A DNA stretch of 64,000 bases, taken from IMG/VR virus record IMGVR_UViG_3300037067_004979, positions 10,733 through 74,732 of that record. One strand, 5' to 3'. The notes under the pieces were generated by a model. It worked only from the letters and a program-made list of their open reading frames with translations, was not told the DNA's origin and did no database searches. Source of the stretch: a virus (taxonomy: Duplodnaviria > Heunggongvirae > Uroviricota > Caudoviricetes). Positions 13,059 to 33,552 of the stretch are shown here, in pieces; positions within the stretch are counted from its first letter, which is position 1, and each line of letters opens with the position of its first letter. Position numbers and translations under genes: made by a program.

Positions 13059-14651
13059 GTGAAAAAGATTCTAAATAGAGTAGAGCAAGAGATTGAGAAC
13101 AGAAATATAGGAGAGGATGAGTTATCTGATATACTATCCTCATTTGAGCCAGCAAAAAATAGACGAATAATTGCAGGGTATGCCTCAGTATCAATTGTTG
13201 ATAGAGAGGGGCATCGAATAAGTATTGCTGCTCTTAAGGATGCTGCCTCAAGATTTATGAAGAGTGGTTATCCCCTTCTAAATGTTTTTCACAGTGATAT
13301 ATCAGTTGGTAAGGTCTTGCCAAGATGGACTGATCCTGAAACAGGTAAGATCTGGGAATCAAGAGTTGATGATAAGGGTTGGTTTGTTGTCTGTGAACTA
13401 AGATCTGACATAGAGATAGCTGATAAGGTTTGGGAAGAGGTTGTTAAGGGTAATCTTAGATCATTCTCCATAGCTGGTTCATCTAAGGCTAAGCATCAGG
13501 CCTATGAGGGTGGCCAACAGTTTACATCAATTGATGAGCTGGATTTGGCAGAAATTACAATTTGTTTACCTGGTGATCAAAAAGTATGGACTAAGTCAGG
13601 TCTTAAAGATATTAAAGACATACAAATTGGTGAGGAAGTTATATCTCATAAAGCTAAATGGAGAAAAGTTACCAAAAAATTTGAAAGGCTAATATCTGAG
13701 AAAATAATTAAGATAACTACTTCAAAGGGATCAGTTATTATAACAAAGAATCATCCTGTCAGAACTTTAATTTATGGTGGACAAAATATTGGAACACATT
13801 ATGAATGGAAAGAAGCTGGTTTTCTTAATGAGGGAGATCTAATATCTTTATTATCATTTAGAGGTGTATGCCCAAGATGTGGTTCTCCGATTTTTATGAC
13901 TAAAGGAAATAGAAATAGAGATTATTGTTCTCTAAAATGTAGATATACTATTGGCAATAGAAGAGGCAAAACATATGCTTCTGGTGATAAAGGAGCTTTG
14001 AAACGTAAAAAGAAAATGGAAGAATTCTATTCTTTTGAAGAAAACAGAAAAAAGATGGGTGCTGGTGGTAGATCAACATGGAATATACGAAAAAATAACC
14101 CAGAAAAATTAAAAGAATGGTTTATGAGATTTAGATCTAAAGATAACTCTAATCATTTTGTGTCTGGAGAAAATCATAAAAAAACTAAACCAGAAAGAGA
14201 GCTAGAGATCATTCTTAAAGAGCTTGGCCTCAGTGAATGGAAGTTTACTGGTGATGGTTCTTATCCTATAGCAGGCAAGTTTCCTGATTTTTATGATGGT
14301 GATAAAAAGATAATCGAGGTATTTGGTGGATATTGGCATAAAAAGGAAGAAGAACAAGAAAGAATAGAACATTTCAGGAAACATGGTTATGATTGTATCA
14401 TTTTATGGGATCATCAATTTGGTGATAAGGCTAGCATTAGAGATACAGTTAGTCAATTTAGCAGAAATAAATTATATAAGATATTAAAGATAGAAGAAAT
14501 GGAATATTCTGGTCTTGTATATAATTTAGAGGTAGAAGAGGATAATTCATTCTGCACAAATATCTGTTTGGTACATAATTGTGAAACTCCAGTCAATCAG
14601 ATGAGTAAGTTTGACATACTATGGAATCCTGGAAGGGTGGATGTTTTTTGA
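13059..14651 (+). CDS. HK97-family prohead protease (S78/U35) interrupted by an intein
   Basis: GTG start behind AGAGGAG RBS; N-extein IIAGYASVSIVDREGHRI...PLLNVFHSD...RSFSIAGSS matches HK97 gp4-type protease (His, Ser); intein begins CLPGDQKVWT and ends LVHN|CETPV. Confidence 0.8.
   Translation: MKKILNRVEQEIENRNIGEDELSDILSSFEPAKNRRIIAGYASVSIVDREGHRISIAALKDAASRFMKSGYPLLNVFHSDISVGKVLPRWTDPETGKIWESRVDDKGWFVVCELRSDIEIADKVWEEVVKGNLRSFSIAGSSKAKHQAYEGGQQFTSIDELDLAEITICLPGDQKVWTKSGLKDIKDIQIGEEVISHKAKWRKVTKKFERLISEKIIKITTSKGSVIITKNHPVRTLIYGGQNIGTHYEWKEAGFLNEGDLISLLSFRGVCPRCGSPIFMTKGNRNRDYCSLKCRYTIGNRRGKTYASGDKGALKRKKKMEEFYSFEENRKKMGAGGRSTWNIRKNNPEKLKEWFMRFRSKDNSNHFVSGENHKKTKPERELEIILKELGLSEWKFTGDGSYPIAGKFPDFYDGDKKIIEVFGGYWHKKEEEQERIEHFRKHGYDCIILWDHQFGDKASIRDTVSQFSRNKLYKILKIEEMEYSGLVYNLEVEEDNSFCTNICLVHNCETPVNQMSKFDILWNPGRVDVF
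13563..14579 (+). mobile_element. intein (339 aa) with zinc ribbon and Vsr/DUF559-like homing endonuclease domain
   Basis: Block A CLPGDQKVW after extein AEITI; block G VHN followed by Cys; internal CPRCGSPIF...YCSLKCR zinc ribbon and GDGSYPIAGKFPDFYDGDKKIIEVFGGYWH...HGYDCIILWDHQF nuclease paralogous to ORF 10023. Confidence 0.65.
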
Positions 14652-14657
14652 TATAAT
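14640..14657 (+). promoter_or_regulatory. conserved phage promoter motif GATGTTTTTTGATATAAT (extended -10)
   Basis: TGnTATAAT extended -10 with upstream T-tract; one of >=9 copies. Confidence 0.5.
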
Positions 14658-14676
14658 ATAAGTGGGCTTGTATCCA

Positions 14677-14720
14677 ATGTCCTGCCGGAAATCCCCTGGA
14701 GTCTAAAAAGATTCTGGGGG
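14677..14720 (+). terminator. rho-independent terminator
   Basis: GGAAATCCCC...GGGGATTTTTATT hairpin + T-run after protease gene. Confidence 0.6.
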
Positions 14721-14730
14721 ATTTTTATTG

Positions 14731-14748
14731 ATGTTTTTTGGTATAATG
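14731..14748 (+). promoter_or_regulatory. conserved promoter motif GATGTTTTTTGGTATAAT
   Basis: Immediately after terminator; drives small-protein cluster. Confidence 0.55.
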
Positions 14749-14844
14749 TGTATATGCCAACTATTGAAATTGAGTTTAATGTTGTGGTGGGGGGTAATAA
14801 GATATAACCTTAACCATAACACTGTTGAGGATAGGGGAAAGTGT

Positions 14845-15027
14845 ATGGCTTGTGGGTATATTTTCCCTAATTACAAGCACTATATGGTAATATGTGATAA
14901 CTGTTTTGATGTGTGGAGTAATAATAGGTTATCCAAGGGGAGAGATCACTTCTTTAGAAATTTTAGGAGAATACCAACCATTGAGGAATACAAGAGATAC
15001 CGATTGCTTGATAGTTTAAGAGGATGA
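14845..15027 (+). CDS. small zinc-ribbon protein (MML-tail family)
   Basis: Start moved to ATG 14845 after AGGGGAAAG; CxxC...CDNCF; C-term EEYKRYRLLDSLRG. Confidence 0.45.
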   Translation: MACGYIFPNYKHYMVICDNCFDVWSNNRLSKGRDHFFRNFRRIPTIEEYKRYRLLDSLRG

Positions 15028-15275
15028 CTAAATTAGATAGAGTGTTATTTGCCTACTACAGGTATCACACAAACAGTCACAGAGAAACTGGTATGTGTAT
15101 ATGCTGTGATGCAAGGTGTAAGAATAACAACATCATGTTTTGTGAGAGTTGTCTCAATATCTATCTAACATTCAGGCAATCACTCAAAAAAAGTGAGCTA
15201 TATACCTTAGCTAAAGCCAGCAGTGATTTTGCTGACTTCAAGTATAAGCTAATGATGCTGAGGTTAAAAGCATAA
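15024..15275 (+). CDS. small zinc-ribbon protein (MML-tail family)
   Basis: CICCDARC...MFCESCL; C-term KLMMLRLKA. Confidence 0.5.
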   Translation: MTKLDRVLFAYYRYHTNSHRETGMCICCDARCKNNNIMFCESCLNIYLTFRQSLKKSELYTLAKASSDFADFKYKLMMLRLKA

Positions 15276-15529
15276 TGGATATTGATATTGCTAGATTAGC
15301 TAGAGCTGTATATTATCATTATAATCAAACATCATATGAAAAGATCAAAGAGTGCGTTGTTTGTGGTAAGGATGTAGCTTCTAATATGATCTTTTGTTCA
15401 GAACATGATAAACAGTGGGAGGATTTTAAGCATTATTCTCTTGGTTTGGAAGATACCTATGCTATGTTAGCTTCATCAGAATCTGAGGATGAGTATATTA
15501 GAAACCTAATGATGAGGGTAATGAGATGA
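15275..15529 (+). CDS. small zinc-ribbon protein (MML-tail family)
   Basis: CVVCGKDV...FCSEHD; C-term IRNLMMRVMR. Confidence 0.5.
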   Translation: MDIDIARLARAVYYHYNQTSYEKIKECVVCGKDVASNMIFCSEHDKQWEDFKHYSLGLEDTYAMLASSESEDEYIRNLMMRVMR

Positions 15530-15601
15530 TAGAGGATTTATGTATCTGTATATTTTTGTTAGTGCCTTGTTTTATCATAGCATTTATATTTTTTTGGCAG
15601 G

Positions 15602-15796
15602 ATGATATATAGATCAATCCTGAGAATCAAGAGAATTCATGAGGTATATCTATTCAGTAGTAAGATACTAGAAGAGGATATTAATGAATATTGTCTCTTG
15701 CCACCATTTAGATATATGGTAGATAGACATGATATACCATTAGAGGATTTTGCTAAGACTGAGAGAATATTATACAGGATGAGAAATAGCATATGA
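15602..15796 (+). CDS. small hypothetical protein, paralog of 15812
   Basis: Shares LLPPFRYMVDRHDIPLEDFAKTERILYRMRNSI-type C-terminus with next ORF. Confidence 0.4.
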   Translation: MIYRSILRIKRIHEVYLFSSKILEEDINEYCLLPPFRYMVDRHDIPLEDFAKTERILYRMRNSI

Positions 15797-15811
15797 GGAT
15801 CTACTAATAAG

Positions 15812-16084
15812 ATGTTTAGTATATTTATTATGATTATTTTTTCTATCATGGTAATTTGTTCAATTCCTTTTATAGTGACTGGTTTTATCAAAATTCATGA
15901 GTGTAATAAGGACTTAAAGAGAAATGAAGAGGTATATGATTACAGAGTAAGGATGATAAAAAAAGATTATGAGGAGTTTCTTCTTCTGCCAAGTTATGAT
16001 AAGATGTTGGAGGATAGAGACACACCCGTAGATGGTTTTGCCATAAGGGAAAGAATGCTGCATAGGATGAGAAAGAGTGTATGA
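15812..16084 (+). CDS. small protein with N-terminal TM helix, paralog of 15602
   Basis: LLLPSYDKMLEDRDTPVDGFAIRERMLHRMRKSV parallels previous ORF. Confidence 0.4.
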   Translation: MFSIFIMIIFSIMVICSIPFIVTGFIKIHECNKDLKRNEEVYDYRVRMIKKDYEEFLLLPSYDKMLEDRDTPVDGFAIRERMLHRMRKSV

Positions 16085-16368
16085 GTATCTGTGAAGATAT
16101 CCACTGCCCAGCCTGTTATTCAGTGAGTGGAGACCATGCAACTTATGAAATAGTACCAAAGTATACCTGTGGGACAATCTGGTGTGTGGGTGAGTGTATT
16201 ACTGGTGAGGCTGGTAACAGACTACAGTGCTGTTATCTATGTAGAAAGAGAGGCAGGTGTGATGAGTATGCACTGGTATATAAGGGTAGTGGACTAGAGG
16301 GTATCATGAGAACAAGAGCTATCAGAAAACACATAAGGAGATACTATAGAGATAATGAGTATATGTGA
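16081..16368 (+). CDS. Cys-rich small protein (CC-x-L-C subfamily)
   Basis: CPACYS...CGTIWCVGEC...CCYLCRKRGRC. Confidence 0.5.
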   Translation: MSICEDIHCPACYSVSGDHATYEIVPKYTCGTIWCVGECITGEAGNRLQCCYLCRKRGRCDEYALVYKGSGLEGIMRTRAIRKHIRRYYRDNEYM

Positions 16369-16621
16369 TGATATTAGGTGTCCCTGTGGTTATGATGTGC
16401 ATGGTATCTCTAGGTATGATCTTCACCCAAAATATGTAGATGATACATTACGATGTGATGAGTCTTGCCCCGATTCAAAGGATCATTTGTATGCATGCTG
16501 TTATCTATGTGATAGCAGAGATAAATGCAGTGTATTTACAGCTACCTTTGGTGGTCTTGAGGGTATAATAAGAGAAAAAAAGATCCGAGATCATCTGAAG
16601 GAACACTATGGTAAGTCCTGA
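16355..16621 (+). CDS. Cys-rich small protein (CC-x-L-C subfamily), tandem paralog
   Basis: MSICDDIRCPCGY...CCYLCDSRDKC; same N-terminus MSIC(E/D)DI as previous. Confidence 0.5.
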   Translation: MSICDDIRCPCGYDVHGISRYDLHPKYVDDTLRCDESCPDSKDHLYACCYLCDSRDKCSVFTATFGGLEGIIREKKIRDHLKEHYGKS

Positions 16622-16694
16622 GTATAGCTCAGTCTGGTAGAGCACTTGGCCTGGGACCAAGGGGTCGTTGGTTCGAATCCAACTACTCAGACCA
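16618..16694 (+). tRNA. tRNA-Pro (anticodon UGG), CCA encoded
   Basis: Cloverleaf read by hand: acceptor CTGAGTA/TACTCAG, D-arm GCTC-AGTCTGGTA-GAGC, anticodon arm CTTGG-CCTGGGA-CCAAG, T-arm GTTGG-TTCGAAT-CCAAC, ACCA 3' end. Confidence 0.75.
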
Positions 16695-16721
16695 AATAGA
16701 TGTTTGTTGTATAATGTAATT

Positions 16722-16982
16722 ATGCCAATAATAAAATTCTTTAGTAGTGATCTAGGATGCAGGATGGAGGATAATTCATCCTGTGAGTATAACACTGACA
16801 CTGGTGAGCTCATCTGTGCTGAGGAGTGTGATAGAATAACTGATAGTGATAACAATCACATCTGTTGTTTATTTTGTGGTAAATTTCCCTGTAAGGGATG
16901 GGATGAACCACTTGGAGCTATTATGATTAAGAACAATGCAATGAAGAAGATAGGTTATTGCATTGAGGAGAAACAACAGTGA
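16722..16982 (+). CDS. Cys-rich small protein
   Basis: Start trimmed to ATG 16722 to avoid tRNA; CEYNTDTGELICAEEC...CCLFCGKFPC. Confidence 0.4.
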   Translation: MPIIKFFSSDLGCRMEDNSSCEYNTDTGELICAEECDRITDSDNNHICCLFCGKFPCKGWDEPLGAIMIKNNAMKKIGYCIEEKQQ

Positions 16983-17278
16983 GTTGTGAGATCTGTGGTA
17001 GTCCTGATAAATTTAAGATCTGTTCATTTACCAGTGGAATCCGTTCAAATAGTTTGTATCATATCTTAGATCTGAAATCAGTAAATAACATGAATAGTGA
17101 GATTACTATACACCACAAGTTTTGCTCAGAACATCTAATTGAATTTTATCGTATGGAACTCATATTAAATGGGTTAAGAGATAATAACCTCCCTGTTGTG
17201 GGTGGTTGTAGGAGATGTAAGGATATACTAAAAAATTTATTTTCTGAGAGGGGACATGATATTACCAATCTACTCTGA
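16979..17278 (+). CDS. small zinc-ribbon protein
   Basis: CEICGSPDKFKIC...CSEH...CRRCKD. Confidence 0.45.
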   Translation: MSCEICGSPDKFKICSFTSGIRSNSLYHILDLKSVNNMNSEITIHHKFCSEHLIEFYRMELILNGLRDNNLPVVGGCRRCKDILKNLFSERGHDITNLL

Positions 17279-17446
17279 GATTATAGATATAATCATAGAG
17301 AGGAGGTTACCACTCCCCATGAATTGCAGTGGGAAAACAAATCATAACATGATGATGCTTCATCTCTGGTTTAACTCACTCATTGCAAGAGACAGGATTG
17401 TTTATCTGGATAGGAATGGTTATATACAGGAGGTTATGTTATAGAT

Positions 17447-17731
17447 ATGATTAAAGAATTAAGGGATTATATTGATATTTTCTTAAAAGTTGAAGAATTA
17501 GAGAATCAAGCAAGAACAGCAACTTCAGAGCTATATGGTATTCGTAATAAGACGTTCAAATTACTACAGGAAATAGGACACTCTGTTGCAATCTGTGTTG
17601 ATAATAAAGTTATTGTGCTTCAATCAGAGGGGACTTCCTCTGTAAAAGTCACTATTCACTACAGTGAGGATGAGGCTATCAAAAAATTAATGTTGGAGAA
17701 ACTGAATGACAAGAATCTGCCCAAAGTGTAA
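17447..17731 (+). CDS. small coiled-coil protein with LMLEKL C-terminal helix
   Basis: No Cys; C-term AIKKLMLEKLNDKN parallels ORF 18938. Confidence 0.45.
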   Translation: MIKELRDYIDIFLKVEELENQARTATSELYGIRNKTFKLLQEIGHSVAICVDNKVIVLQSEGTSSVKVTIHYSEDEAIKKLMLEKLNDKNLPKV

Positions 17732-17987
17732 GACAATTCTGTTTAGGGATGGCAAAAATACATATCATTGTATTGGTTGCTCTCTCAATGGTTCATACAT
17801 TGATATGGAGAGGCAGGCAATACAGATAAGAGATAGGGTAGAGAGACATGCCATCAAGGTCGAGTGTGTTAGGTGTGGTGTGAGAAAGGTACTCAATAAG
17901 GAGATATCCTGCTCTACACTAATCAATAATAACTCCAGATTTATCTGTCATGATTGCCAGAGTATTATCAGAATTGGTAGAAGATAA
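17706..17987 (+). CDS. small zinc-ribbon protein
   Basis: CPKCKT...CIGC...CVRCG...CHDCQ. Confidence 0.45.
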   Translation: MTRICPKCKTILFRDGKNTYHCIGCSLNGSYIDMERQAIQIRDRVERHAIKVECVRCGVRKVLNKEISCSTLINNNSRFICHDCQSIIRIGRR

Positions 17988-18358
17988 TGAGAATATACGC
18001 CAAGTTTAGTGAGATACATAATGTAGAGGTAAATGTGTCACATGTTGGATCATTCCACATGCCAGATTTATTGAAGATCCCTGGCGCTGAGATCACAGTT
18101 ATCAAGTGTAATAAATTTAATATAACCAAGGATAATAAGTATAATCCTAAGATTGTTGGTGATTTAATCAAACACATGAATTATAGATGGCATAGGGTTA
18201 AAGTTAAACTGTGTATTCCTGGTACCAGGTGTACTCTCACATACTCATCAGAGAGACTAATGGCAAGTGAGGTGAAGGCACTTGGGTTAGAGCCAATTGA
18301 ATCTGCTATTCTCAAGGAAGAGCAGTATGCCATGTTTGGAGCTATATCAGGTGGGTAA
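17987..18358 (+). CDS. hypothetical protein
   Basis: 123-aa ORF, no motif. Confidence 0.4.
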   Translation: MRIYAKFSEIHNVEVNVSHVGSFHMPDLLKIPGAEITVIKCNKFNITKDNKYNPKIVGDLIKHMNYRWHRVKVKLCIPGTRCTLTYSSERLMASEVKALGLEPIESAILKEEQYAMFGAISGG

Positions 18359-18896: not shown

Positions 18897-18912
18897 GTTG
18901 TTTTTTGATATA
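18895..18912 (+). promoter_or_regulatory. conserved promoter motif GTTGTTTTTTGATATAAT
   Basis: Extended -10 copy; followed by GGAGGATTT RBS. Confidence 0.5.
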
Positions 18913-18937
18913 ATTATCATGTTTGGAGGATTTAACA

Positions 18938-19270
18938 GTGTTTAGAGAGAAATATCATGAGGTAAAAGCCATTGACGAAGAGGTAAAAAACATACAAAAA
19001 GAGATTGTTTCTTTTCTTGCCAAAACCCAGGCTAAATATTCTGATATGCAGATAGAGCTTCGTAAGAAAACTGGTGAACTTATCATGAAGAGAGGGGCTC
19101 TAATTGAATCCCTTGAGAAACTTGGTACAAATGTCTTTATTGAGGATGGTGACAAGAAGGTTATGATTACCTTCTTTACCAATAAGACTGGCAAGAAATC
19201 TGTGTTCTTTAATGAGGGAATTACCCCAGAGGAAGCAGATAGACAACTCATGCTGGAGAATCTAAAGTAG
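18938..19270 (+). CDS. small coiled-coil protein with LMLENLK C-terminus
   Basis: GTG 18938 sits 8 nt after GGAGGA (same RBS spacing as other genes after this promoter type); C-term ADRQLMLENLK. Confidence 0.45.
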   Translation: MFREKYHEVKAIDEEVKNIQKEIVSFLAKTQAKYSDMQIELRKKTGELIMKRGALIESLEKLGTNVFIEDGDKKVMITFFTNKTGKKSVFFNEGITPEEADRQLMLENLK

Positions 19271-19272
19271 AG

Positions 19273-20329: not shown

Positions 20330-20347
20330 ATTGTTTTTTGGTATAAT
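20330..20347 (+). promoter_or_regulatory. conserved promoter motif TTGTTTTTTGGTATAAT
   Basis: Extended -10 copy followed by GGAGGATTT RBS. Confidence 0.5.
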
Positions 20348-20366
20348 TTCAAGTGGAGGATTTCAA

Positions 20367-21083
20367 ATGATTGAATTAACGCCAATTGAGAAAAAAATAC
20401 TGAGTGTATTTAAGGCTAGGGGAGCAGATGATGCTCTTAACATTGTTAAAGCACTAAAACAGAAACCAATCTACTATCAGGTGAGTGGCCTGAGACAGGA
20501 ATATAACCTAAGATTTGTTAAGGCTCTGATGAAGACATCCAGTCCAGCTGGAGCCAATGAGTACATCATATACTCCAATGGTGATTTGGGTAGTTACCAC
20601 AATGAAAAATACTTCTCAGGTTCGTTTACTGTGGGTGGATATCACAGAATCTATAATGGTTCTAATATCTCAGCTATTGAGACACCCAGCTGGGTATCTT
20701 CCTGCTTTGGCAAGACTGTTTCTGATGAGATCATTCAATACATAACAGATAATCTAAAAAGAGAGCAGGTTGTGGGAAGTCTGATTAGTAGAATTTGTGC
20801 AGGTTTAATTAAGAATATGGGTGAGGAGGATTGGGGATACACAGTGTTTAAGTATCTCATGACTGATGAGCATCTAACTGCACTGGATCTAACACTAGAG
20901 AATCTAATTCAACCTAATAAGAAATATGGTGCGCGTGACCTACAGGAGTATATCAGTGATATACTTAAGGGATACATCAATGATAACTTTGAGAACTACC
21001 TATCTGGGGACAGGTCATTTATGAATGTATCTCTGTCAGAGTGTTTGAGAAAATCAATGATGCTGAGTTTACTAAGAAGGTAG
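20367..21083 (+). CDS. hypothetical protein
   Basis: Start placed at ATG 20367 after GTGGAGGATTTCAA; 238 aa. Confidence 0.5.
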   Translation: MIELTPIEKKILSVFKARGADDALNIVKALKQKPIYYQVSGLRQEYNLRFVKALMKTSSPAGANEYIIYSNGDLGSYHNEKYFSGSFTVGGYHRIYNGSNISAIETPSWVSSCFGKTVSDEIIQYITDNLKREQVVGSLISRICAGLIKNMGEEDWGYTVFKYLMTDEHLTALDLTLENLIQPNKKYGARDLQEYISDILKGYINDNFENYLSGDRSFMNVSLSECLRKSMMLSLLRR

Positions 21084-21100
21084 ATATTTTTTGATATAAT
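21083..21100 (+). promoter_or_regulatory. conserved promoter motif ATTTTTTGATATAAT
   Basis: Extended -10 copy; GGAGGATTT RBS; ATG 21121. Confidence 0.5.
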
Positions 21101-22152: not shown

Positions 22153-22206
22153 TATTCCAACGCAGTCCATCATTCACATGGTGGACTGAATGGAGGATTA
22201 AAGAAA

Positions 22207-23373: not shown

Positions 23374-23386
23374 ATCCTCCATTAGT

Positions 23387-23434
23387 ATGGGTGCTGGGGT
23401 ATATCTCTAGCACCCATATTCTCTCTTTATTTGG
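23387..23434 (+). terminator. rho-independent terminator
   Basis: Perfect 9-bp stem ATGGGTGCT/AGCACCCAT then T-rich tract. Confidence 0.55.
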
Positions 23435-25136: not shown

Positions 25137-25157
25137 TAAGATATCAATTGGAGGATT

Positions 25158-25697: not shown

Positions 25698-25700
25698 AAA

Positions 25701-25985
25701 ATGTTAAAGAAAATATCAAATGTGATCAAAGAGTACCAAGGTAGGAGGAGGAATTTTAAATCTCTGCAGTCTGAGTATCAAAAGAAATTGAATGTCCTGT
25801 TACAAGATACATCAATGGATATTCAATACAGGCTTCTCTTTATCTGTCGCATGCGCATAGAGAATGAGAAGTTATTTGACAGTTTGGATTTATCTGTTTT
25901 TCAGGAGATATATGAGCAATATGTCCTTGATAAGAAATTCTATGATGGTTGGCTTGCCTGGGTAAGAGAAAATAAACTCGTCTAG
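25701..25985 (+). CDS. hypothetical protein
   Basis: 94-aa ORF. Confidence 0.45.
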   Translation: MLKKISNVIKEYQGRRRNFKSLQSEYQKKLNVLLQDTSMDIQYRLLFICRMRIENEKLFDSLDLSVFQEIYEQYVLDKKFYDGWLAWVRENKLV

Positions 25986-26002
25986 ATGTTTTTTGGTATA
26001 AT
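25985..26002 (+). promoter_or_regulatory. conserved promoter motif GATGTTTTTTGGTATAAT
   Basis: Exact copy of motif at 14731. Confidence 0.55.
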
Positions 26003-26041
26003 ACAGAATATAAAAATATTTTAAAAGGAGGAATTTAGAAT

Positions 26042-26686
26042 ATGTCAAAGAAAAACAAGGTCACTCATGCAGGGGGCATGACAGTAGAGCGAGTTGACAA
26101 TCTCCAGGAAATTCTGCCTGAGGTAGAGAAGTCAACAGCAAACTCTGTAGAACATACAGAGACAGACACCAAGCAAATGTATGATAGCTTTTTCGAGAAG
26201 CTCATACAGAAACTTGGCATTAAGCCTTCATGGGCCGGCACGCGTCATCTCAGGATATTCAATTCTGAGAAAGGCAGCAATTACTTCGTGGTTGTTTTCC
26301 ATCCAAAGACAGGACTGGTTGGCTGCGAGTTCTGGATGAGAGGAAAGAGGTCATTCACAGAAGAGATGCTGGAGAGGCTGCCCAGTCTCGGTCTAAATGA
26401 GGAAGTTGTACCAAAATACAACAACGGGAAGGATGCACACATCCAGGTCAGCATGGAAACAAAAAATGCCACCCCTGAATGGGCATCAAAGACATTGAAA
26501 AAAATGATGGACATCATCAACCCGCTTCTCAAAGTTGAAGAGACCACAGCGCCGGCGGCAACAGAAGAGAAAAAATCACATAAAGGCAAGGCCAGGAAGG
26601 TAGCTGAGGTGACCACTCCGACTGAGGAACACCTTGATGTTGAGGTTACTGATCAGGGTGCGGGGGAACCCCTTCTGATTAAATAG
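26042..26686 (+). CDS. hypothetical protein (compositionally GC-richer gene)
   Basis: RBS AAGGAGGAATT; 214 aa; visibly higher GC (e.g. GGGCCGGCACGCGTC, CAGCGCCGGCGGCAAC). Confidence 0.5.
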   Translation: MSKKNKVTHAGGMTVERVDNLQEILPEVEKSTANSVEHTETDTKQMYDSFFEKLIQKLGIKPSWAGTRHLRIFNSEKGSNYFVVVFHPKTGLVGCEFWMRGKRSFTEEMLERLPSLGLNEEVVPKYNNGKDAHIQVSMETKNATPEWASKTLKKMMDIINPLLKVEETTAPAATEEKKSHKGKARKVAEVTTPTEEHLDVEVTDQGAGEPLLIK

Positions 26687-26760
26687 AATTCCCAATCACA
26701 ACAAGATATTTGGGTAGGACAATAACAGTCCTACCCATTTTCTTTGTCTGTTGAGAACTA

Positions 26761-26778
26761 GATGTTTTGTGATATGAT
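26761..26778 (+). promoter_or_regulatory. variant of conserved promoter motif GATGTTTTGTGATATGAT
   Basis: Degenerate copy followed by ACGGAGGATTAG RBS. Confidence 0.4.
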
Positions 26779-27015: not shown

Positions 27016-27035
27016 ATCAATTCAATTCATAATTT

Positions 27036-27068
27036 GGGGGAGTTGAAAGATATTCCCCCTTTTTATTG
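27036..27068 (+). terminator. rho-independent terminator
   Basis: GGGGGA-loop-TCCCCC followed by TTTTTATTGTT. Confidence 0.6.
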
Positions 27069-27069
27069 T

Positions 27070-28290
27070 TATTAAAAACTAGTCATATATGAACATCATA
27101 TTATATGAAGCTAATCATCCATCAATATAGACTCCAATCCAAATCAAATACGCAATATAAATGATGCCACAATAGCCAAGAGACACACACAAATACAAAA
27201 CCAATATAAACCTATATCAATAAAATGTGGGGCAAAAGAAAGATAGAACAAATGTATTAAACCTAGATACATGACAATATGATCAAATAAGAAGAGTACG
27301 ATTGAGACAGAATCAAACCAATTCAAAGCCAATTCAAAGTTGCTACCTCATCTCTCTGCCAACAGGTTCATATAAGACTATTTTTATCCAGGCGGACGGA
27401 GAAAGTACACTTTAGAACAAATGTATTATAATATTACCAGGTAGCAAATCGTATCCAAAACACGATCAATTATACAACAAATTTGCGCTCAGAATGACCA
27501 AGAATGATGCCGAAGTCATTTATTAATGATAGTATATTGATAAACACTTGTTCTATTAATCTTGAGCAAACGGGGCATTAAAAAGAACAAATACGTATGG
27601 ATGACTAGAACACTTGTATTATTCATATATGACTGTTTCTGAGACATCTTTATTGTAAAGCTGGAATTGGAATCAAATTCTATTCACGCCGTCAATGATA
27701 TAATATCAACAAATATGACTTTGTATTTGGTTAGAGAGTTCATTTATGACCATCAAAAGTTACTCAATTTGATCGTAATATTGCCAATTCCTAATTCAAG
27801 TATGTTTCTTTGACGCCACGAAGCTCAAGGATGATGCCGAGACAAGTTATGCGCTAGATTCTATTGGTGGATGAAATATATACTTATTTGCGCTCCAGAA
27901 GACCCTGATTAATAGCACAATTGTGTTGTCATATATGACTATTTGATCGTATCCTTATGTAAAGAAGCACACTTGTACTAGTTTGTTATAGAACAAATGG
28001 GCTAATTAGAACAGATGTGCTGTGTATCATTATGTAATGTAATTAACTAACTATCATATATGACATACATAATAACAAATATGGTTGGTTAATTAATACA
28101 TATATGACTATCTCTATGATATATGCTATATGACCATCATATATGACTGTCTTCCATGATTGTCTCATAACCCCCCATTATGTCAAATGCTTACTATATG
28201 ATATTCATATGTGACTATTGACCTGCAAGTCAGGGACTTACTTGAAAATTTTTTGACCTGAATTTATATCTGGGAACAATATATGATATC
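27070..28290. repeat. 1.2-kb non-coding divergent region with iterated motifs (TCATATATGACT x>=8; ACACTTGTA; AGAACAAATG)
   Basis: No ORF >62 aa; copies at ~27084, 27624, 27942, 28055, 28103, 28130, 28139, 28205; candidate origin/regulatory hub. Confidence 0.55.
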
Positions 28291-28544: not shown

Positions 28545-28557
28545 TGTGATCTACTCA

Positions 28558-28818
28558 TCATGTTAATTTAGATCTACTGTATCTTCTATACTTGAGATAT
28601 TTTTGGGAGAACATTAGACGTGCTAGGGGTTCTACCATTGCTAGGATGTTATGTTCTCTATCACATTCCCCTATATTCCTACATATCAGACAGCACTTGC
28701 ATTGATCTTTTTCACTTGTATTCCATATCTCACAGCTAAAAATACTGTTATTCTTTCTTGTTTTTCCATACTTGCATCCAACTGAGATGCAATCATCTAT
28801 ACTAATTGGGCTCTTCAT
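28558..28818 (-). CDS. Cys-rich small protein, tandem paralog
   Basis: CISVGCKYG...CKCCLICRNIGEC. Confidence 0.5.
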   Translation of the reverse strand: MKSPISIDDCISVGCKYGKTRKNNSIFSCEIWNTSEKDQCKCCLICRNIGECDREHNILAMVEPLARLMFSQKYLKYRRYSRSKLT

Positions 28819-29098
28819 CTCTAACCCCCAGATATTTTTGTCTAAAGACTAGTAGCATCAGTGGATCAACATCACTCATTTTCCCAACAACATTCCTGTG
28901 CCAGTTGCATGTGTCATCACACAGCAAACAGCACCCAGTTATACTGTTCATTCTATTAGAAATAGTGGGGGGATAGACTTTAAATCCATCACCTCTTCTA
29001 CAAACCTTTCCACAGTCATGTAAAGTTTTCATACTTGGTATTAACTCACTGTGTGGGCATCTGAGAGATTCACAGTCCTCTCTTCTTATAAATCTCAT
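28802..29098 (-). CDS. Cys-rich small protein
   Basis: CESLRCPHS...CGKVC...CCLLCDDTC. Confidence 0.45.
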   Translation of the reverse strand: MRFIRREDCESLRCPHSELIPSMKTLHDCGKVCRRGDGFKVYPPTISNRMNSITGCCLLCDDTCNWHRNVVGKMSDVDPLMLLVFRQKYLGVRDEEPN

Positions 29099-29439
29099 CT
29101 CATGTTCTCAAGTATTATTATTTTTTTAAACTCATCAAATGATATATTAACTACTTCTTCCATACTCATCCTTGTTACTCTTATTAATATATGATATATC
29201 ACATTTATCTCATCCCTAAATATCCTAGCTAATTTATCATGACAATGCAAGTGCATTTGATATGGCCATGATGACATAAAATAATCTGATTTACGTATAT
29301 GCACCGGATTATTACAGTAAATACATATTTGATCATATGATAGTGGTTGAACACGAGCGGACATCTTTTGAGATATCAGATATTTCTTTATCTGTATGAA
29401 GTCATTGATATCAATCACTCTAACCCCCCATATTTCCAA
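29095..29439 (-). CDS. hypothetical protein
   Basis: 114 aa; C-term IIILENMR. Confidence 0.4.
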   Translation of the reverse strand: MEIWGVRVIDINDFIQIKKYLISQKMSARVQPLSYDQICIYCNNPVHIRKSDYFMSSWPYQMHLHCHDKLARIFRDEINVIYHILIRVTRMSMEEVVNISFDEFKKIIILENMR

Positions 29440-29671
29440 TCATCAAGACCCTTCTATAATCGGGATCTGTTGGTAGTATTCCTTTATTTCTATAGTCACC
29501 AATTGCTGATATAAAACTAAAGATCTCATTATTGTGCTTATGAAAACACTTTTTGCAGCTGTAGAAGACTCTATCATGATGACAGTCTCTACCACAGATA
29601 AGGCACCTGCGGAGAGGTACAGCCCTGGTAGTATGCTGCTGATATATACCTAGTAATATCTCAAATTTCAT
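29420..29671 (-). CDS. small zinc-ribbon protein (MML tail)
   Basis: CLICGRDCHHDRVFYSCKKCFHKH; C-term RRVLMIGNMGG. Confidence 0.5.
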   Translation of the reverse strand: MKFEILLGIYQQHTTRAVPLRRCLICGRDCHHDRVFYSCKKCFHKHNNEIFSFISAIGDYRNKGILPTDPDYRRVLMIGNMGG

Positions 29672-29882
29672 TACTGCCTCATCCTTAAAAGCATTATCAG
29701 TCTTTTTACAGTATCTTCATTATTTTCTGTTATCTTTAAATTAACCTGAAAACATACTTGTCTTTTATTAACATAAAGACACTCATAACAGCAAACATAA
29801 TCATTGCATAACTACTGTCCACCAAAACAGTCCTCTCTGAATGAACAATTAAGCTTATCACACAATTCATTTCTCATTGTTT

Positions 29883-29957
29883 TGGTACCCCCGGCAGGAG
29901 TTGAACCTGCATTCTCTGTTTAGAAGACAGATGCTCTATCCACTGAGCTACGGAGGC
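29883..29957 (-). tRNA. tRNA-Arg (anticodon UCU), CCA encoded
   Basis: Reverse complement GCCTCCG-TA-GCTC-AGTGGATA-GAGC-A-TCTGT-CTTCTAA-ACAGA-GAAT-GCAGG-TTCAACT-CCTGC-CGGGGGT-A-CCA. Confidence 0.8.
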
Positions 29958-29962
29958 ACACA

Positions 29963-30214
29963 CTATCTTGACTCCAACTTTCCGAGCATTATTACTCTTC
30001 TGTATGTCTCATCATTTGGCAGTATTTGATATGAGTAATATAGATCGATTGCTGAGATAAACTTCCTTGCCTCATTACCATGAATAGCCCAACAGTCATT
30101 ACACATAAATATTGTTTGATCATCCCTACAGTATTTACCACAGACTGGGCAATCTTCTATTATCCCATAATAGTAGCATCTTCTATATATGTGTTGCAGT
30201 ATTGAGATATCCAT
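29963..30214 (-). CDS. small zinc-ribbon protein (MML tail)
   Basis: CPVCGKYCRDDQTIFMCNDCW; C-term RRVIMLGKLESR; close paralog of 29420. Confidence 0.5.
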   Translation of the reverse strand: MDISILQHIYRRCYYYGIIEDCPVCGKYCRDDQTIFMCNDCWAIHGNEARKFISAIDLYYSYQILPNDETYRRVIMLGKLESR

Positions 30215-30221
30215 GTATTTA

Positions 30222-30584
30222 CTAGATCCTCTTTCTGACAGGCCTTGTCTCCCTTACTGTTTTAGAGACCACCTTATTGGTTTCCTTAAATAAACCGGAT
30301 TGATAAAATCTGATTTCCTCACCACAAAATGGGCAGAATTTAATTTTCCTGGTTGAGGATTCATCATCAAAATAGGCATGACCAAGATATATCTCAATGA
30401 TTGGCTTGGGGTCTTCCATGGTGTCATAATAGGCACCAAAAGATACATGATGATCTGAATAGGCTTCCTCTAATTCATCACAGCAAAACTCCCTGGTCTT
30501 ATACTCTTCTAGGTAGGGTAGTTCCCTCTTGGATTTCCCTCCATCCATAACCTCTCTGATAACTCTATTGTATTCAAAAATCAT
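30222..30584 (-). CDS. hypothetical protein with C-terminal zinc ribbon
   Basis: CPFCGEE; RBS GAGGTGA; preceded by conserved promoter motif. Confidence 0.5.
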   Translation of the reverse strand: MIFEYNRVIREVMDGGKSKRELPYLEEYKTREFCCDELEEAYSDHHVSFGAYYDTMEDPKPIIEIYLGHAYFDDESSTRKIKFCPFCGEEIRFYQSGLFKETNKVVSKTVRETRPVRKRI

Positions 30585-30602
30585 ATATCACCTCATGTTA
30601 TT

Positions 30603-30619
30603 ATTATATCAAAAACATC
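30603..30619 (-). promoter_or_regulatory. conserved promoter motif (minus strand) GATGTTTTTGATATAAT
   Basis: Reverse complement of + strand attatatcaaaaacatc; followed by GAGGTGA RBS and ATG of 30584. Confidence 0.5.
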
Positions 30620-30855
30620 TATTCACTTTTTCTCAGTTGGTTGAGCATGGCTAGCTGTATTAGTTCACTCTCAGATAAATTTTGTAGAGTGGTGCACTCT
30701 TCCAGTACATGATAATTATTTTTTATGACAAGCATGAATTTTCTCCAGCAATCATCACAGGCAAATACTCTTGGCATCTTAATACCACAGTATGGGCACT
30801 CAGTGTGATTAATGGGGCTTTTGCTAAGCATTTCACTTATTATTTCCCTGTACAT
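30619..30855 (-). CDS. small zinc-ribbon protein (MML tail)
   Basis: CPYCGIKMPRVFACDDCW; C-term LAMLNQLRKSE. Confidence 0.45.
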   Translation of the reverse strand: MYREIISEMLSKSPINHTECPYCGIKMPRVFACDDCWRKFMLVIKNNYHVLEECTTLQNLSESELIQLAMLNQLRKSE

Positions 30856-30878
30856 CAGCTATCTTAATCCATCTTTAC

Positions 30879-31130
30879 TCATTGTGTAAAGTTACTTATT
30901 ATTGCTTCCTGTATTGTGTAATAGGTTGGATTACCCTTTTCCAATTTTATTTGACTATCATAAGAATCAAGATGATATGTATGAGCTGATTCATACCTTA
31001 CGAAGGCTCTCTCAAGCCAGATTATTCTCCCATCATTTAAGTTGTGTGGGAGAAAACAAAACACCGTATAACCAACTTGTAATCTCATTACCTTTTTGTT
31101 TATATCTTCTTTACATTTACCAATTATCAT
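30879..31130 (-). CDS. hypothetical small protein
   Basis: 83 aa. Confidence 0.4.
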   Translation of the reverse strand: MIIGKCKEDINKKVMRLQVGYTVFCFLPHNLNDGRIIWLERAFVRYESAHTYHLDSYDSQIKLEKGNPTYYTIQEAIISNFTQ

Positions 31131-31402
31131 TTTAATATCCCTATCTTTATAAACATCTTAATTTTCTGTATGAGTGATTGTGATTTACCTTCATATTGAC
31201 TTTTCTTGCACACTATAAAAAACATAAATTTTGTGTCTTTATCAACCTCTCCGGAAAAAAAACAGTAATCTGTGTCATTATCTATGTGACATTTAACACA
31301 ACAGATATACTTTTTACTTTGTCCACATAAGTGAGTTCGACAATGTAACATATTTTTTTGTGGACAAATAATTTGACATTGTTTTTCTGTGGGTACAAAC
31401 AT
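31127..31402 (-). CDS. Cys-rich small protein
   Basis: CQIICPQ...CRTHLCG...CCVKCH. Confidence 0.45.
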   Translation of the reverse strand: MFVPTEKQCQIICPQKNMLHCRTHLCGQSKKYICCVKCHIDNDTDYCFFSGEVDKDTKFMFFIVCKKSQYEGKSQSLIQKIKMFIKIGILK

Positions 31403-31428
31403 ATTATATAACCTCTAGTTAATATGAG

Positions 31429-31515
31429 TGGCGGAGTCGGTGAGATTTGAACTCACGATGCTGTTAGCATGACCGCTTTCAAGACGGCTCCGATAAACCA
31501 CTCCGGCACGACTCC
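31429..31515 (-). tRNA. tRNA-Ser (anticodon UGA), type II, CCA encoded
   Basis: Reverse complement GGAGTCG...GCCGT-CTTGAAA-GCGGT, long variable arm CATGCTAACAGCATC, T-arm GTGAG-TTCAAAT-CTCAC, CGACTCC-G-CCA. Confidence 0.75.
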
Positions 31516-31590
31516 TGGTAGGGAGTGCAAGATTCAAACTTGCGTCTCCGAGATATAAGCTCGGTATCCTAATCACTGAACTAACTCCCC
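31516..31590 (-). tRNA. candidate tRNA-Ile (anticodon UAU), CCA encoded; weak D-stem
   Basis: Reverse complement GGGGAGT..CCGAG-CTTATAT-CTCGG..GCAAG-TTTGAAT-CTTGC-ACTCCCT-A-CCA; anticodon loop has U33 and A37; D-stem has 2 G-U pairs. Confidence 0.55.
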
Positions 31591-31598
31591 CCATCAAG

Positions 31599-32387
31599 CT
31601 AGTCTGTTGGTAATACAATAGGCATGCCCTGTGGTACAACAACAATCTTTGCATCAGGAGCAAGCTTATTAATGTATAGATACTGTAGATACTCCCTTGT
31701 CAATGTTGATTGTAATACCTTGATGGCCTCTGCCTGTCCCTTGGCCTGAGCAACAGCCTGTTCTGCCTCTACTCTTATTTGGAGTAACTTATTTTCGGCC
31801 TTTAAGACATCCTGTGCAGCAGCTACCTTTGATTCAATTGCAGCAGAGAATTCCTTGGAAAAGGCAAAATCAGTAAGACTGACAGTCTCAACAACTATGT
31901 GTCTTAGTGCTAGACGCTCAGTTATAGCCTTTGCAATATCATCCTTAACCTGGGCTCTCTTGGTAATCATCTCCTCTGCAGGATACTTTGCAGTGATTTC
32001 CTTTAGTGTTTCCTGAATCATGTTGTGCCCAACTGTATTCATATAACTAACACCCAGTTGATTGTAGACATCAATGGCATAGTTCTTATCAAGATGATAG
32101 TTTATCTTTATGGTAGTTTTTACTTCCTGAAGGTCCCTGGTACCAGCAGATGATTCTGGTTCCTCATATAGCTGTGTTTGAAGTGATATGAGCTGTAAGC
32201 CCTCAAACAATGGCATCTTAACGGAGTATCCAGCCTCTCTCACACCAACAGCCTTACCACCCTGAAGAACAATATTTAGGTGTCCTGCAGGTGTGGTTAT
32301 GATACCACCAACAAGGGTAACAATGAGTAATATAACTATTACCACTGCCCCAAAAATGATTAAACCGACCTTAGTATCTTCGTCCAT
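31599..32387 (-). CDS. SPFH/band-7 (prohibitin/HflK/C-like) membrane protein
   Basis: N-terminal TM helix; SPFH core ...IVLQGGKAVGVREAGYSVKMPLFEGLQLISLQTQ...; C-terminal coiled coil AEQAVAQAKGQAEAIKVLQ; GC-richer. Confidence 0.7.
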   Translation of the reverse strand: MDEDTKVGLIIFGAVVIVILLIVTLVGGIITTPAGHLNIVLQGGKAVGVREAGYSVKMPLFEGLQLISLQTQLYEEPESSAGTRDLQEVKTTIKINYHLDKNYAIDVYNQLGVSYMNTVGHNMIQETLKEITAKYPAEEMITKRAQVKDDIAKAITERLALRHIVVETVSLTDFAFSKEFSAAIESKVAAAQDVLKAENKLLQIRVEAEQAVAQAKGQAEAIKVLQSTLTREYLQYLYINKLAPDAKIVVVPQGMPIVLPTD

Positions 32388-32557
32388 TTTTCTTTTCTCC
32401 TATTTATTTTATTTGTTGCTAGTTCTGGTTAGAGACTTGTTGTATGTATGAAAATAACACCTCCTGAAATTTTTTACAGTAATTAATCAATTCAGCCACA
32501 TATAAAAAATTTTACAAAACATAAAAAATATGATACAATAAATTCTGTCCTTCCAAC

Positions 32558-32821
32558 CTAATATAATCTATTTAACATTATTGTCTTCTTTATTTTTCTA
32601 TTAGATATACCCTCTCTACATAATCTAATTATCTCATACCTTTCACTCTGAAATTCACTAGATAAATCCAAGTATATACCAACACAATCATTACACAAGA
32701 TAAAAGCTCTTTCTCTTGATACTTTACACAGACAAAAACAGCAAACACTCCTATCAGAAGTTGGTGATGAATAATTAGTCATTGACCTAATCATATTAAT
32801 ATATTTATCTATACTACTCAT
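32558..32821 (-). CDS. small zinc-ribbon protein (MML tail)
   Basis: CCFCLCKVSRERAFILCNDCV; C-term KKTIMLNRLY. Confidence 0.5.
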   Translation of the reverse strand: MSSIDKYINMIRSMTNYSSPTSDRSVCCFCLCKVSRERAFILCNDCVGIYLDLSSEFQSERYEIIRLCREGISNRKIKKTIMLNRLY

Positions 32822-33086
32822 TATTTAGCCTATGCAGCATACATTTCTTTACTATATCATCAATACTATATCTTTCTAGTAGACCCTCAATACTAGTAGT
32901 ACCAGGAAATAACACAATATTAAGATCTCTTAGATATTTATTTCTGCAACTACCGCAGACAGGGTATCTTGTTAATACAAAACTATTATTCTTCTCACAC
33001 AGTATACAAACATCAGGTGGATCTATCTCTCTATTTGTGGCAAAGAAATCTTTTATCTTTTCTAGAACTTCTCTAAAAGACATCAC
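32814..33086 (-). CDS. small zinc-ribbon protein (MML tail)
   Basis: CILCEKNN...CGSCRNKY; C-term VKKCMLHRLNNE. Confidence 0.5.
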   Translation of the reverse strand: MMSFREVLEKIKDFFATNREIDPPDVCILCEKNNSFVLTRYPVCGSCRNKYLRDLNIVLFPGTTSIEGLLERYSIDDIVKKCMLHRLNNE

Positions 33087-33529
33087 TTATCATTCCAAAA
33101 TTTAGATTTTCTGAGATACTGCTGTTGTCTCTTATCATTCCAAGAGTCCATTCTTGATAGATTAGATAGTCTGTCTGCAAATTTCAGCATAATAGCCTTT
33201 TTGGTGTGGAGTCTGGGGAAGTAATATCCATGTTCATCATTGGTGCCATCATGCGTTACCTCATTCACAAGATCTGCTATCACAGGACCAAAATTCTCTG
33301 TTAGTTCCTCAAGAGTGGTGTCTGTATCTTCCAGTGTATCATGTAGATATGCAGCACAAATTATGTCATCATCATCAGTTACCATGGATAGTATACGTAC
33401 CACATTAAGTATGTGAGCAGATAGATAATCTCTATTATCATCATCTACCTGTCCATGATGTTTTACCATGGCAAAGCCATATGCTTTTGATCTTAGGGAT
33501 AAATCTTTTTCTGGAAATCCAACTTTCAT
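33083..33529 (-). CDS. small HD-domain phosphohydrolase (RelA/SpoT-like HD, candidate small alarmone hydrolase)
   Basis: HGQ...H...AAYLHDTLEDTDTT matches SpoT/Mesh1 HD motif (HD..ED); 148 aa. Confidence 0.6.
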   Translation of the reverse strand: MKVGFPEKDLSLRSKAYGFAMVKHHGQVDDDNRDYLSAHILNVVRILSMVTDDDDIICAAYLHDTLEDTDTTLEELTENFGPVIADLVNEVTHDGTNDEHGYYFPRLHTKKAIMLKFADRLSNLSRMDSWNDKRQQQYLRKSKFWNDK

Positions 33530-33536
33530 ATATTAC

Positions 33537-33552
33537 ATTATATCAAAAACAT
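33537..33552 (-). promoter_or_regulatory. conserved promoter motif (minus strand) ATGTTTTTGATATAAT
   Basis: -10 ends 7 nt before ATG 33529: near-leaderless, or true start is downstream. Confidence 0.4.

Follow-up and report, generated by a model that had tools for sequence, protein, structure and literature searches.

The 64,000-nucleotide (nt) window analyzed here is taken from IMG/VR record IMGVR_UViG_3300037067_004979, which derives from an uncultivated tailed phage with a genome of about 100 kb, and it carries a repeated promoter-like word ending in TATAAT that is the subject of this report. Besides a prohead protease and a major capsid protein, the window encodes tail tube and tape measure proteins, together with glycosyltransferases and HNH endonucleases. 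The protease gene (13059-14651) has an S78-like N-terminus and carries an intein (Pfam Intein_splicing), and the capsid gene (34474-35847) belongs to Pfam family SU10_MCP; the two are separated by a 19-kb insert that holds about 50 small open reading frames (ORFs), four transfer RNA (tRNA) genes, and an AAA_5 ATPase with its DUF2201 (VWA-like) partner. Our main finding is that this block contains ten copies of a single word with the geometry of a bacterial -10 promoter region, and that related phages keep the same hexamer, each with a word of its own directly upstream.

When the copies are anchored on the hexamer, their consensus reads tAGATG-T5/6-G(A/G)-TATAAT. The 18-mer GATGTTTTTTGRTATAAT, allowing up to three mismatches, has 8 matches in the window (14640, 14730, 18897, 20330, 21083, 25985, 26761 and a weak one at 43514) against 0.46 expected, a number that none of 100 shuffles reached. 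The minus-strand copies are absent from this search because they have a T5 and not a T6 tract. The 13-mer TTTTTGRTATAAT recovers them: it has 8 exact matches, including 30603-30615 and 33537-33549 on the minus strand, and 9 matches with up to one mismatch (1.08 expected). The sequence TGNTATAAT is by itself also enriched (20 versus 9.3 expected). The first-pass annotation of this DNA, which had reported at least nine copies on both strands, is thereby confirmed, its coordinates being off by 1-2 nt at most (14731 becomes 14730, and 18895 becomes 18897). A weight-matrix scan of the window, a check it had proposed for the whole genome, separated nine copies at 18.3 bits or more from a next best site of 16.5 bits lying within a gene, a gap that is partly circular because the matrix was trained on those nine copies; it also exposed a tenth, degenerate copy at 16698-16715. 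The weak plus-strand candidate (GCTGTTTTTTGTGATAAT, 43514-43531), which may be a chance match, lies inside a gene at its 3' end, with 40 nt separating it from the following start at 43572.

All ten copies fall between 14.6 and 33.6 kb, that is, within 30% of the window, for which the chance probability is by our own estimate about 0.3^10. Each copy occupies a short intergenic gap or overlaps the upstream stop, and each has the same direction as the gene that follows. No copy of the word occurs in the 44 kb of structural modules, and an ordinary-type candidate promoter (33570-33598, TTTAGA-N17-TATAAT) precedes the capsid operon; confinement of the class to the block of small, non-structural genes is supported. 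We considered whether the word could encode a conserved C-terminal peptide followed by a stop codon, and rejected this explanation: the upstream stops occur at differing offsets and in differing frames, and the copies ending at 16715 and 26778 come after a tRNA gene and a terminator, respectively, and not after an ORF.

On the plus strand, copy 1 (GATGTTTTTTGATATAAT, 14640-14657) includes the protease stop codon (TGA, 14649-14651) and is followed about 30 nt downstream by an intrinsic terminator (14687-14726, plus strand; 18-bp stem and T-run, dG -30.2, z -4.2). This terminator, located between copies 1 and 2, closes the protease operon, and a transcript from copy 1 would be about 65 nt at most. 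Copy 2 (GATGTTTTTTGGTATAAT, 14730-14747) opens the small-ORF block of the plus strand as its first promoter, and its transcription unit would extend from 14747 to about 16.6 kb. Copy 3, the degenerate one (AGATGTTTGTTGTATAAT, 16698-16715), directly follows the tRNA-Pro gene and has the arrangement TATAAT-N6-ATG, without a Shine-Dalgarno (SD) sequence; this ATG, at 16722, is in frame with an ORF ending at 16982, and the unit would run from 16715 to 18.9 kb. Copy 4 (GTTGTTTTTTGATATAAT, 18897-18914), followed by GGAGGATT at 18925-18932 and a GTG start at 18938, would serve the interval from 18914 to 20.3 kb, and copy 5 (ATTGTTTTTTGGTATAAT, 20330-20347), followed by GGAGGATT at 20355-20362 and an ATG at 20367, 19 nt past the hexamer, that from 20347 to 21.08 kb. 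Copy 6 (GATATTTTTTGATATAAT, 21083-21100) lies upstream of the AAA_5 ATPase/DUF2201 pair, after which the unit starting at 21100 would end at an intrinsic terminator (23384-23420, plus strand, z -7.5). Copy 7 has the same sequence as copy 2 (GATGTTTTTTGGTATAAT, 25985-26002), with GGAGGAAT at 26027-26034 and an ATG at 26042; its unit would extend from 26002 to the intrinsic terminator at 26711-26737 (plus strand, z -5.3), immediately upstream of copy 8. The latter (GATGTTTTGTGATATGAT, 26761-26778, or 26751-26778 with its -35-like hexamer) is a variant with TATGAT and a broken T-tract, and its unit would run from 26778 to a terminator at 27036-27059.

On the minus strand, copy 10 (TAATGTTTTTGATATAAT, 33537-33554; T5) is the first promoter of the block and shows TATAAT-N7-ATG, the ATG being at 33529, again with no SD sequence; its unit would extend from 33537 to 30.6 kb. 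Copy 9 (AGATGTTTTTGATATAAT, 30603-30620; T5) is followed by the SD sequence GAGGTGAT and an ATG at 30584, and its unit would extend from 30603 to 28.3 kb. Two of the ten copies, 2 and 8, have a terminator directly upstream and are thus composite terminator-promoters. A hairpin at 33608-33628 was examined as a possible attenuator before the capsid operon and rejected as not significant (z -0.7).

The conserved stretch of the copies runs from about -27 to -7 only and has sharp edges; upstream of -27 the information content drops to approximately 0-0.5 bit per column, so that the class has neither a -35 hexamer nor an UP element. The earlier claim that no -35 box is needed agrees with the absence of a conserved -35 among the copies, and the reading of the copies as promoter-like elements with bacterial geometry is supported. 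The hexamer is TATAAT in nine of the ten copies and TATGAT in the other; taken together with the TATACT seen among relatives, its variants alter positions 4 and 5 only and keep T1, A2 and T6. Variation confined to positions 4 and 5 is usual for sigma70 -10 elements. The extended form TG(A/G)TATAAT, with TG at -15/-14, is present in nine of the ten copies and absent from the copy at 16715. The extended -10 described in the first-pass annotation is supported; the upstream tract, given there as six or seven T residues, is T5 in the minus-strand copies. The further suggestion that the T-tract acts as an UP-like element is not supported. The tract occupies -16 to -21, inside the spacer, and UP elements lie at about -40 to -60, so it is not one of them; moreover, 64 promoters pooled from nine genomes (in 5-nt bins) show no A/T-rich signal upstream of -27, the A/T content from -61 to -37 being 0.61-0.70 compared to approximately 0.64 for the genome, and the discriminator is A/T-rich (0.82). 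Copy 8 alone has a -35-like hexamer (TTGAGA, 26751-26756, 16-nt spacing), which in this weak copy suggests compensation, and recognition by a full-length sigma70-type factor.

Relatives of the phage were gathered through the ATPase, giving eight contigs of the same layout whose ATPases are 47-62% identical to that of the window. Each of these genomes has its own upstream word of 9-16 nt, in front of a hexamer that is constantly TATAAT or TATACT. The words are AAATAAyGTTTTAnnn-TATAAT in L001 (6 copies), (A)TTGTTTT(T)R-TATAAT in L002/L003 (4 copies), AAAACTTCA-N3-TATAAT in L004 (11 copies), AAAACACTAAnTGn-TATAAT in L238 (4-8 copies by pattern), AAACCTCAA-N3/4-TATAAT in L239 (3-4 copies), TTTTTAACTAT-TATAAT in L240 (5-7 copies by pattern), TTTTTATCAAG-TATAAT in L241 (7 copies) and GGTAGCTTCAAAACCC-N4-TGTGn-TATACT in L007 (9 copies); they are not always T-rich, as AAAACTTCAGCG illustrates. 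The TG at -15/-14 is limited to the window, L007, L238 and part of L239, and it is absent from all or most copies in five of the eight relatives (L001, L002, L004, L240 and L241). When placed on an ATPase tree, the words track phylogeny: YGTTTT is common to the window and L001 at the same offset, L238 and L239 (77% ATPase identity) share AAAC..Y.AA, and the words of L240 and L241 (70% ATPase identity) differ at three fixed positions. The location is conserved as well, since the slot upstream of the ATPase holds the local word and TATAAT in six of the nine genomes (the window, L001, L002, L238, L240 and L241); the ATPase-side promoter of L004 is one small ORF further upstream.

To judge from these comparisons, what stays constant in the promoter family is the hexamer; the word next to it is specific to the lineage and, within any one genome, changes in concert. 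TGn is then not the feature that the family conserves. As the relatives keep the hexamer but differ in the word, and five of them have no TG, the TGn and T-tract of the window are therefore a lineage version of a phage-specific element. The second proposal for the T-tract, a recognition site for a phage factor, fares better: private words favor a phage-specific recognition element over a plain extended -10. No gene for such a factor was found in the window.

Several further features were seen in the relatives. In L007, whose full contig has 100 kb, the repeat is a cassette of about 70 nt, present nine times between 4782 and 20704, that comprises GGTAGCTTCAAAACCC-N4-TGTGnTATACT and a conserved 5' untranslated region (GTnAGGGTAGAGAAAAA..AGGAGAG); the GCTTCA that it has near -30 is similar to GCTT(t/c)a, the core of the MotA box in T4. 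L004 has, after its protease gene (4183-4410), a word promoter, a G/C-rich inverted repeat detected by eye and a second promoter, in the same order as in the window. Three TGTTTGTATAAT repeats in L002 were rejected as promoters, as they lie inside paralogous ORFs, where they code for CLYN.

The distances from the hexamer to the start codons give a second view of the class. A sequence GGAGGATT or GGAGGAAT follows five of the ten copies, 4-7 nt from the start codon, and the same sequence also occurs ahead of genes lacking a copy of the word (22153-22206 and 25137-25157); it is therefore the general SD sequence of the phage and not part of the word. Thus the ribosome-binding site that the first-pass annotation placed 6-8 nt before the ATG of typically every copy is real at half of them, with a spacing of 4-7 nt. 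Start codons follow the copies ending at 20347, 21100 and 30603 by merely 18-20 nt. Other copies have an ATG without an SD sequence 6-8 nt past the hexamer: in the window those at 33537 (minus strand) and 16715 (plus strand), and in the relatives those at 250 and 3147 of L002 and at 4200, 4410 and 5977 of L004. With the interval widened to 4-8 nt, this arrangement is found at two window copies and at least seven copies in relatives, and the first ATG opening an ORF lies 4-8 nt downstream at 9 of 59 motif sites versus 11 of 418 other TATAAT sites. The ATG at 16722 and that at 33529 (minus strand) appear from this spacing to be leaderless starts.

We consider it probable that the copies are host sigma70-type promoters independent of a -35 element, whose proximal word is a lineage-specific element. 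The ten copies would then form one promoter class that drives the small ORFs and tRNAs of the non-structural block. A holoenzyme of the sigma70 family, in the simplest case the RNA polymerase of a bacterial host with its primary sigma factor, would take TATAAT as the -10 and read the TG at -15/-14 as an extended -10, with no -35 contact required, and transcription would begin about 7 nt past the hexamer. The products, short SD-led mRNAs or leaderless ones, would be ended by terminators that consist of a hairpin and a T-run. The 14 nt that precede the hexamer (tAGATG, T-tract and TGn, approximately -27 to -13) would be the local version of a promoter-proximal word that either optimizes or marks phage promoters for the host polymerase, or is read by a phage-specified factor. 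That host sigma70 reads the class, from start sites at this distance and with early or middle timing, is what we infer from the observed sequence pattern, placement, geometry and comparative behavior of the word.

Such promoters have precedents. Thermus phage P23-45 has middle and late promoters of the extended -10 type, devoid of a -35, that are read by the host polymerase, and its gp39 shuts off the -10/-35 promoters of the host and spares those of the phage (PMC3950348). The window resembles it in having a consensus -10 after TG, no recognizable -35 and a phage-specific class, but differs in that 10-12 nt more are conserved (the T-tract and tAGATG), that relatives swap TG for other words, and that no gp39- or AsiA-like gene was identified in the window. 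Housekeeping promoters of the Campylobacterales have TGnTATAAT and a periodic A/T-rich signal in place of the -35 (PMC3656092; PMC3887049). The window word, T-rich directly upstream of TGnTATAAT and lacking a -35, could by analogy be an ideal promoter in a host of this type; however, no A/T-rich or periodic signal extends beyond -27 here (at the resolution of 5-nt bins), the words of relatives can be non-T-rich, and the SD sequence of the phage is a strong GGAGG and that of C. jejuni is AAGGA (PMC3656092).

Several points weigh against a simple host promoter. Five relatives have TATAAT with no TG and no -35, and since a lone -10 usually signals only weakly to a primary sigma factor, host polymerase by itself may not suffice across the family. 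Concerted change within a genome, together with drift that follows the ATPase phylogeny, would be the pattern expected if the words co-evolved with a trans-acting factor. Copy 1 is oddly placed for a simple mRNA promoter, as it reads directly into a terminator. Finally, approximately 40 kb of the genome, the contig of which has 106 kb, lies outside the window, leaving room for genes of a sigma factor, polymerase or activator.

An alternative is that host sigma reads the -10 and that a phage-encoded activator or sigma-remodeling partner binds the word at -13 to -27, replacing the -35 contact, a possibility that we regard as open to serious doubt. Promoters of this kind would be middle and not immediate-early, and analogous to the T4 MotA box with its -10 or to the Lpa system of P1. 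The private word of 9-16 nt beside an invariant TATAAT or TATACT in each of the nine genomes, the related yet distinct words of sister phages (L240 and L241; L238 and L239) fixed in all copies, the five genomes lacking both TG and -35, and the abrupt end of conservation at the word edges are all as this alternative would have them. Precedent exists in the T4 middle promoters, where a phage element accompanies an excellent host -10 (PMC2988021), and in Lpa, a phage sequence-specific DNA-binding activator (PMC1891329). The search for a factor gave a different picture: Pfam and PHROGs analyses of the approximately 101 ORFs of the window revealed no family of sigma factors, RNA polymerases, regulators, helix-turn-helix proteins, MotA or AsiA. 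A single syntenic protein evolves fast; it has about 230 amino acids, is encoded just upstream of the ATPase (20367-21083 in the window, 238 amino acids; 83-793 in L001; 7282-7974 in L002; 8773-9747 in L004), and shows 20-25% identity and an N-terminal LTxxEK motif, the adjacent ATPase having 50-62% identity. The 238-amino-acid protein has no Pfam match, no homologue beyond itself in an indexed search and no PDB match with a 6-sequence profile, and its AlphaFold single-sequence model is unusable (pLDDT 38). Moreover, the block looks early-like, and early genes need unmodified host polymerase unless the factor is injected. T4 early promoters and the promoter/stem-loop cassettes discussed below show that a genome-specific early consensus can exist without a specificity factor (PMC2988021; PMC4122927).

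About half of the T4 middle promoters carry TGn, and the MotA box, (a/t)(a/t)TGCTT(t/c)a, is centered at -30, 12 +/- 1 bp from the -10 (PMC2988021). As in T4, a near-perfect host -10 is combined here with a phage-specific element instead of a -35; unlike in T4, the word directly adjoins the hexamer (-13 to -27), its sequence being another one that does not conform to the MotA box, no MotA or AsiA homologue was found in the window, and only L007 has a GCTTCA-containing word near -30. The late promoters of P1, which depend on Lpa with host SspA, likewise combine a standard -10 with a close phage-specific element in place of the -35. Lehnherr et al. (1992) are said to have placed this element near -22, and it is reportedly a 9-bp inverted repeat. 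The word described here is asymmetric, and it drives a non-structural block, unlike the P1 class, which drives late structural genes. It is conceivable, and we put it forward tentatively, that this clade of approximately 100-kb phages uses an undescribed system in which a fast-evolving phage factor reads a word of 9-14 bp abutting the -10, at -13 to -27. In such a system the word may replace the contacts of both -35 and TGn and co-evolve with its factor, each lineage having a private word. The motif of the window would itself be one more phage promoter of the known extended -10 kind; what may be new is the private word next to the -10 throughout the family.

A further explanation, which we find unlikely, is that the repeats are mainly recombination substrates or mobile promoter cassettes, their uniformity arising from copy-and-paste or gene conversion with no recognition constraint beyond TGnTATAAT. 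The documented precedent is that of the PeSL cassettes of T4-type phages, in which an early promoter and a stem-loop are repeated in hyperplastic regions (PMC4122927). Several observations agree with it: near-identical repeats lie here among hyperplastic small ORFs mostly unshared with relatives, a terminator lies directly upstream of copies 2 and 8, the L007 repeat reaches into the 5' untranslated region as a cassette of about 70 nt, and the consensus exceeds known sigma70 needs in both cases (PMC4122927; PMC2988021). However, a stem-loop is found at only two of the ten copies, and similarity in the window stops exactly at the word edges, so that larger segments were not duplicated recently. 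T4 early promoters, moreover, include an UP element, a -35, a TGn and a -10; those of the window have neither -35 nor UP. Cassette mobility would in any case complement promoter function and not replace it. The favored reading of host sigma70-type promoters overlaps with this explanation and with the factor-dependent one, because both assume that host sigma reads the -10.

We hold it to be very improbable that the 20-nt word as a whole serves a phage-encoded polymerase or a phage sigma factor as its promoter, in the manner of T7, with an incidental resemblance to a -10. Promoter families of the T7 group have a similar architecture of a specificity word and an A/T-rich end, and a genome-specific word with a constant A/T-rich end, sharp edges and phylogenetic drift would fit it. 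The other observations do not: there is no conserved initiating sequence past the hexamer; the SD-less ATGs cluster 6-8 nt beyond it, which is the sigma70 distance from -10 to start and not that of initiation at the end of the TATA; the hexamer is the primary-sigma consensus in all nine genomes; a -35-like hexamer that would compensate is present at the weak copy; and the window yielded no polymerase or sigma domain.

The domain of the host deserves consideration, because the only matches of the capsid protein in an isolate-phage collection are archaeal tailed viruses (Methanofastidiosa vir519, HVTV-1 and HCTV-5); these matches are weak (26-29% identity over 35-44% of the protein) and make the question a fair one. 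Bacterial transcription starts about 7 nt past the -10, and an archaeal TATA box directs a start approximately 25 nt downstream; with start codons 6-8 or 18-20 nt past the hexamer, an archaeal start site would therefore fall inside the genes. The transcription factor B recognition element (BRE) next to an archaeal TATA box is purine-rich and determined by the host. That the words are BRE/TATA promoters of an archaeal virus, as the capsid matches and the richness of the block in small CxxC zinc-ribbon ORFs (23 of 50) might suggest, is a reading to which we give almost no credence, given start codons 6-8 nt (without SD) or 18-20 nt (with SD between) past the hexamer, an upstream element that is T-rich and varies between viruses, strong hairpin-plus-T-run terminators (z -4.2 to -7.5), a gene for an HD_4 (RelA/SpoT-type) hydrolase, the TGTGnTATACT form of the L007 promoters, which is typical of bacteria, and the assignment of the capsid by Pfam to SU10_MCP, a bacterial phage family. 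The hydrolase gene (33083-33529, minus strand; E-value 1.5e-15) is the first of the minus-strand operon, and its product is, from this domain match, likely a (p)ppGpp hydrolase. All signals but the capsid matches indicate a bacterial host, as the first-pass annotation had proposed, among them the leaderless TATAAT-N6-8-ATG spacing, the starts at 18-20 nt, the intrinsic terminators and the HD_4 gene.

The word thus provides a transcription map, with ten promoters, four terminators and two putative leaderless genes, for a block of ORFans that is otherwise unannotatable, and its geometry points to a bacterial host domain despite the likeness of the capsid to archaeal viruses. The more useful lead is comparative: a constant -10 and a private abutting word whose drift follows phylogeny. 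Should the word be read by a phage factor, the clade would be a set of orthogonal word-plus-factor promoter pairs and would add a promoter geometry to the examples of T4 MotA and P1 Lpa; if host polymerase alone reads it, the clade would illustrate homogenization of promoters within a genome beyond known sigma needs.

The block itself is hyperplastic, with few small ORFs in common with relatives. At least two CxxC-type pairs occur in 23 of its 50 small ORFs (14.7-33.5 kb) versus 8 of 51 ORFs elsewhere in the window, which suggests that they may be zinc-ribbon paralogues. Its tRNA genes, for Pro(UGG), Arg(UCU), Ser(UGA) and Ile(UAU), lie at 16618-16694, 29883-29957 and 31429-31590. An Rfam search of the window found these four tRNAs only, and no known RNA family at the unit formed by copy 1 and its terminator. 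Megablast of the 20-kb block against isolate phages gave no DNA-level match, an ATPase profile search of genome contigs gave just two distant, uninformative matches, and exact-motif scans of viral and metagenome contigs gave single chance matches only, among the matches listed. The same phage was found in three other datasets (JGI 3300014205, SRR18595300 and ERZ27247358) at 99.95-100% identity, and these near-identical contigs differ by 1-2 substitutions, none of them within the promoter copies. The protease intein is also present in the homologues of L238, L240 and L243; the L004 homologue has only 191 amino acids and no intein.

The plus- and minus-strand small-gene blocks converge on a non-coding stretch of 1.27 kb (27016-28289) that carries six copies of a palindromic iteron, CATATATG(AC), at 27084, 27624, 27930, 28055, 28099 and 28138, and may be a replication origin. 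Comparable non-coding gaps of 1.2-2.3 kb exist in L001 (7789-9035), L004 (16530-17893) and L238 (16374-18674), the last with about seven tRNA-like TψC arms. In the head-module region, the interval 4340-8549 encodes a 1006-amino-acid protein with a C-terminal DRAT-like ADP-ribosyltransferase domain (residues 820-971, E-value 4e-16), and the protein after it has an anthrax lethal-factor-like domain; from these domains, both could be injected effectors. T4 Alt is injected, ADP-ribosylates RNA polymerase and boosts early promoters, and by analogy the DRAT-like protein may be relevant to the use of the promoter class. Three ORFs among the virion genes, at 10023-10796 and elsewhere, match HNH/NUMOD3 homing endonucleases (phrog_1271). 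Lastly, a 170-nt gap of the minus-strand operon contains a near-consensus promoter-like site on the plus strand (32511-32539, TTTACA-N17-TG-TACAAT), which would be antisense to the gene at 32558-32821.

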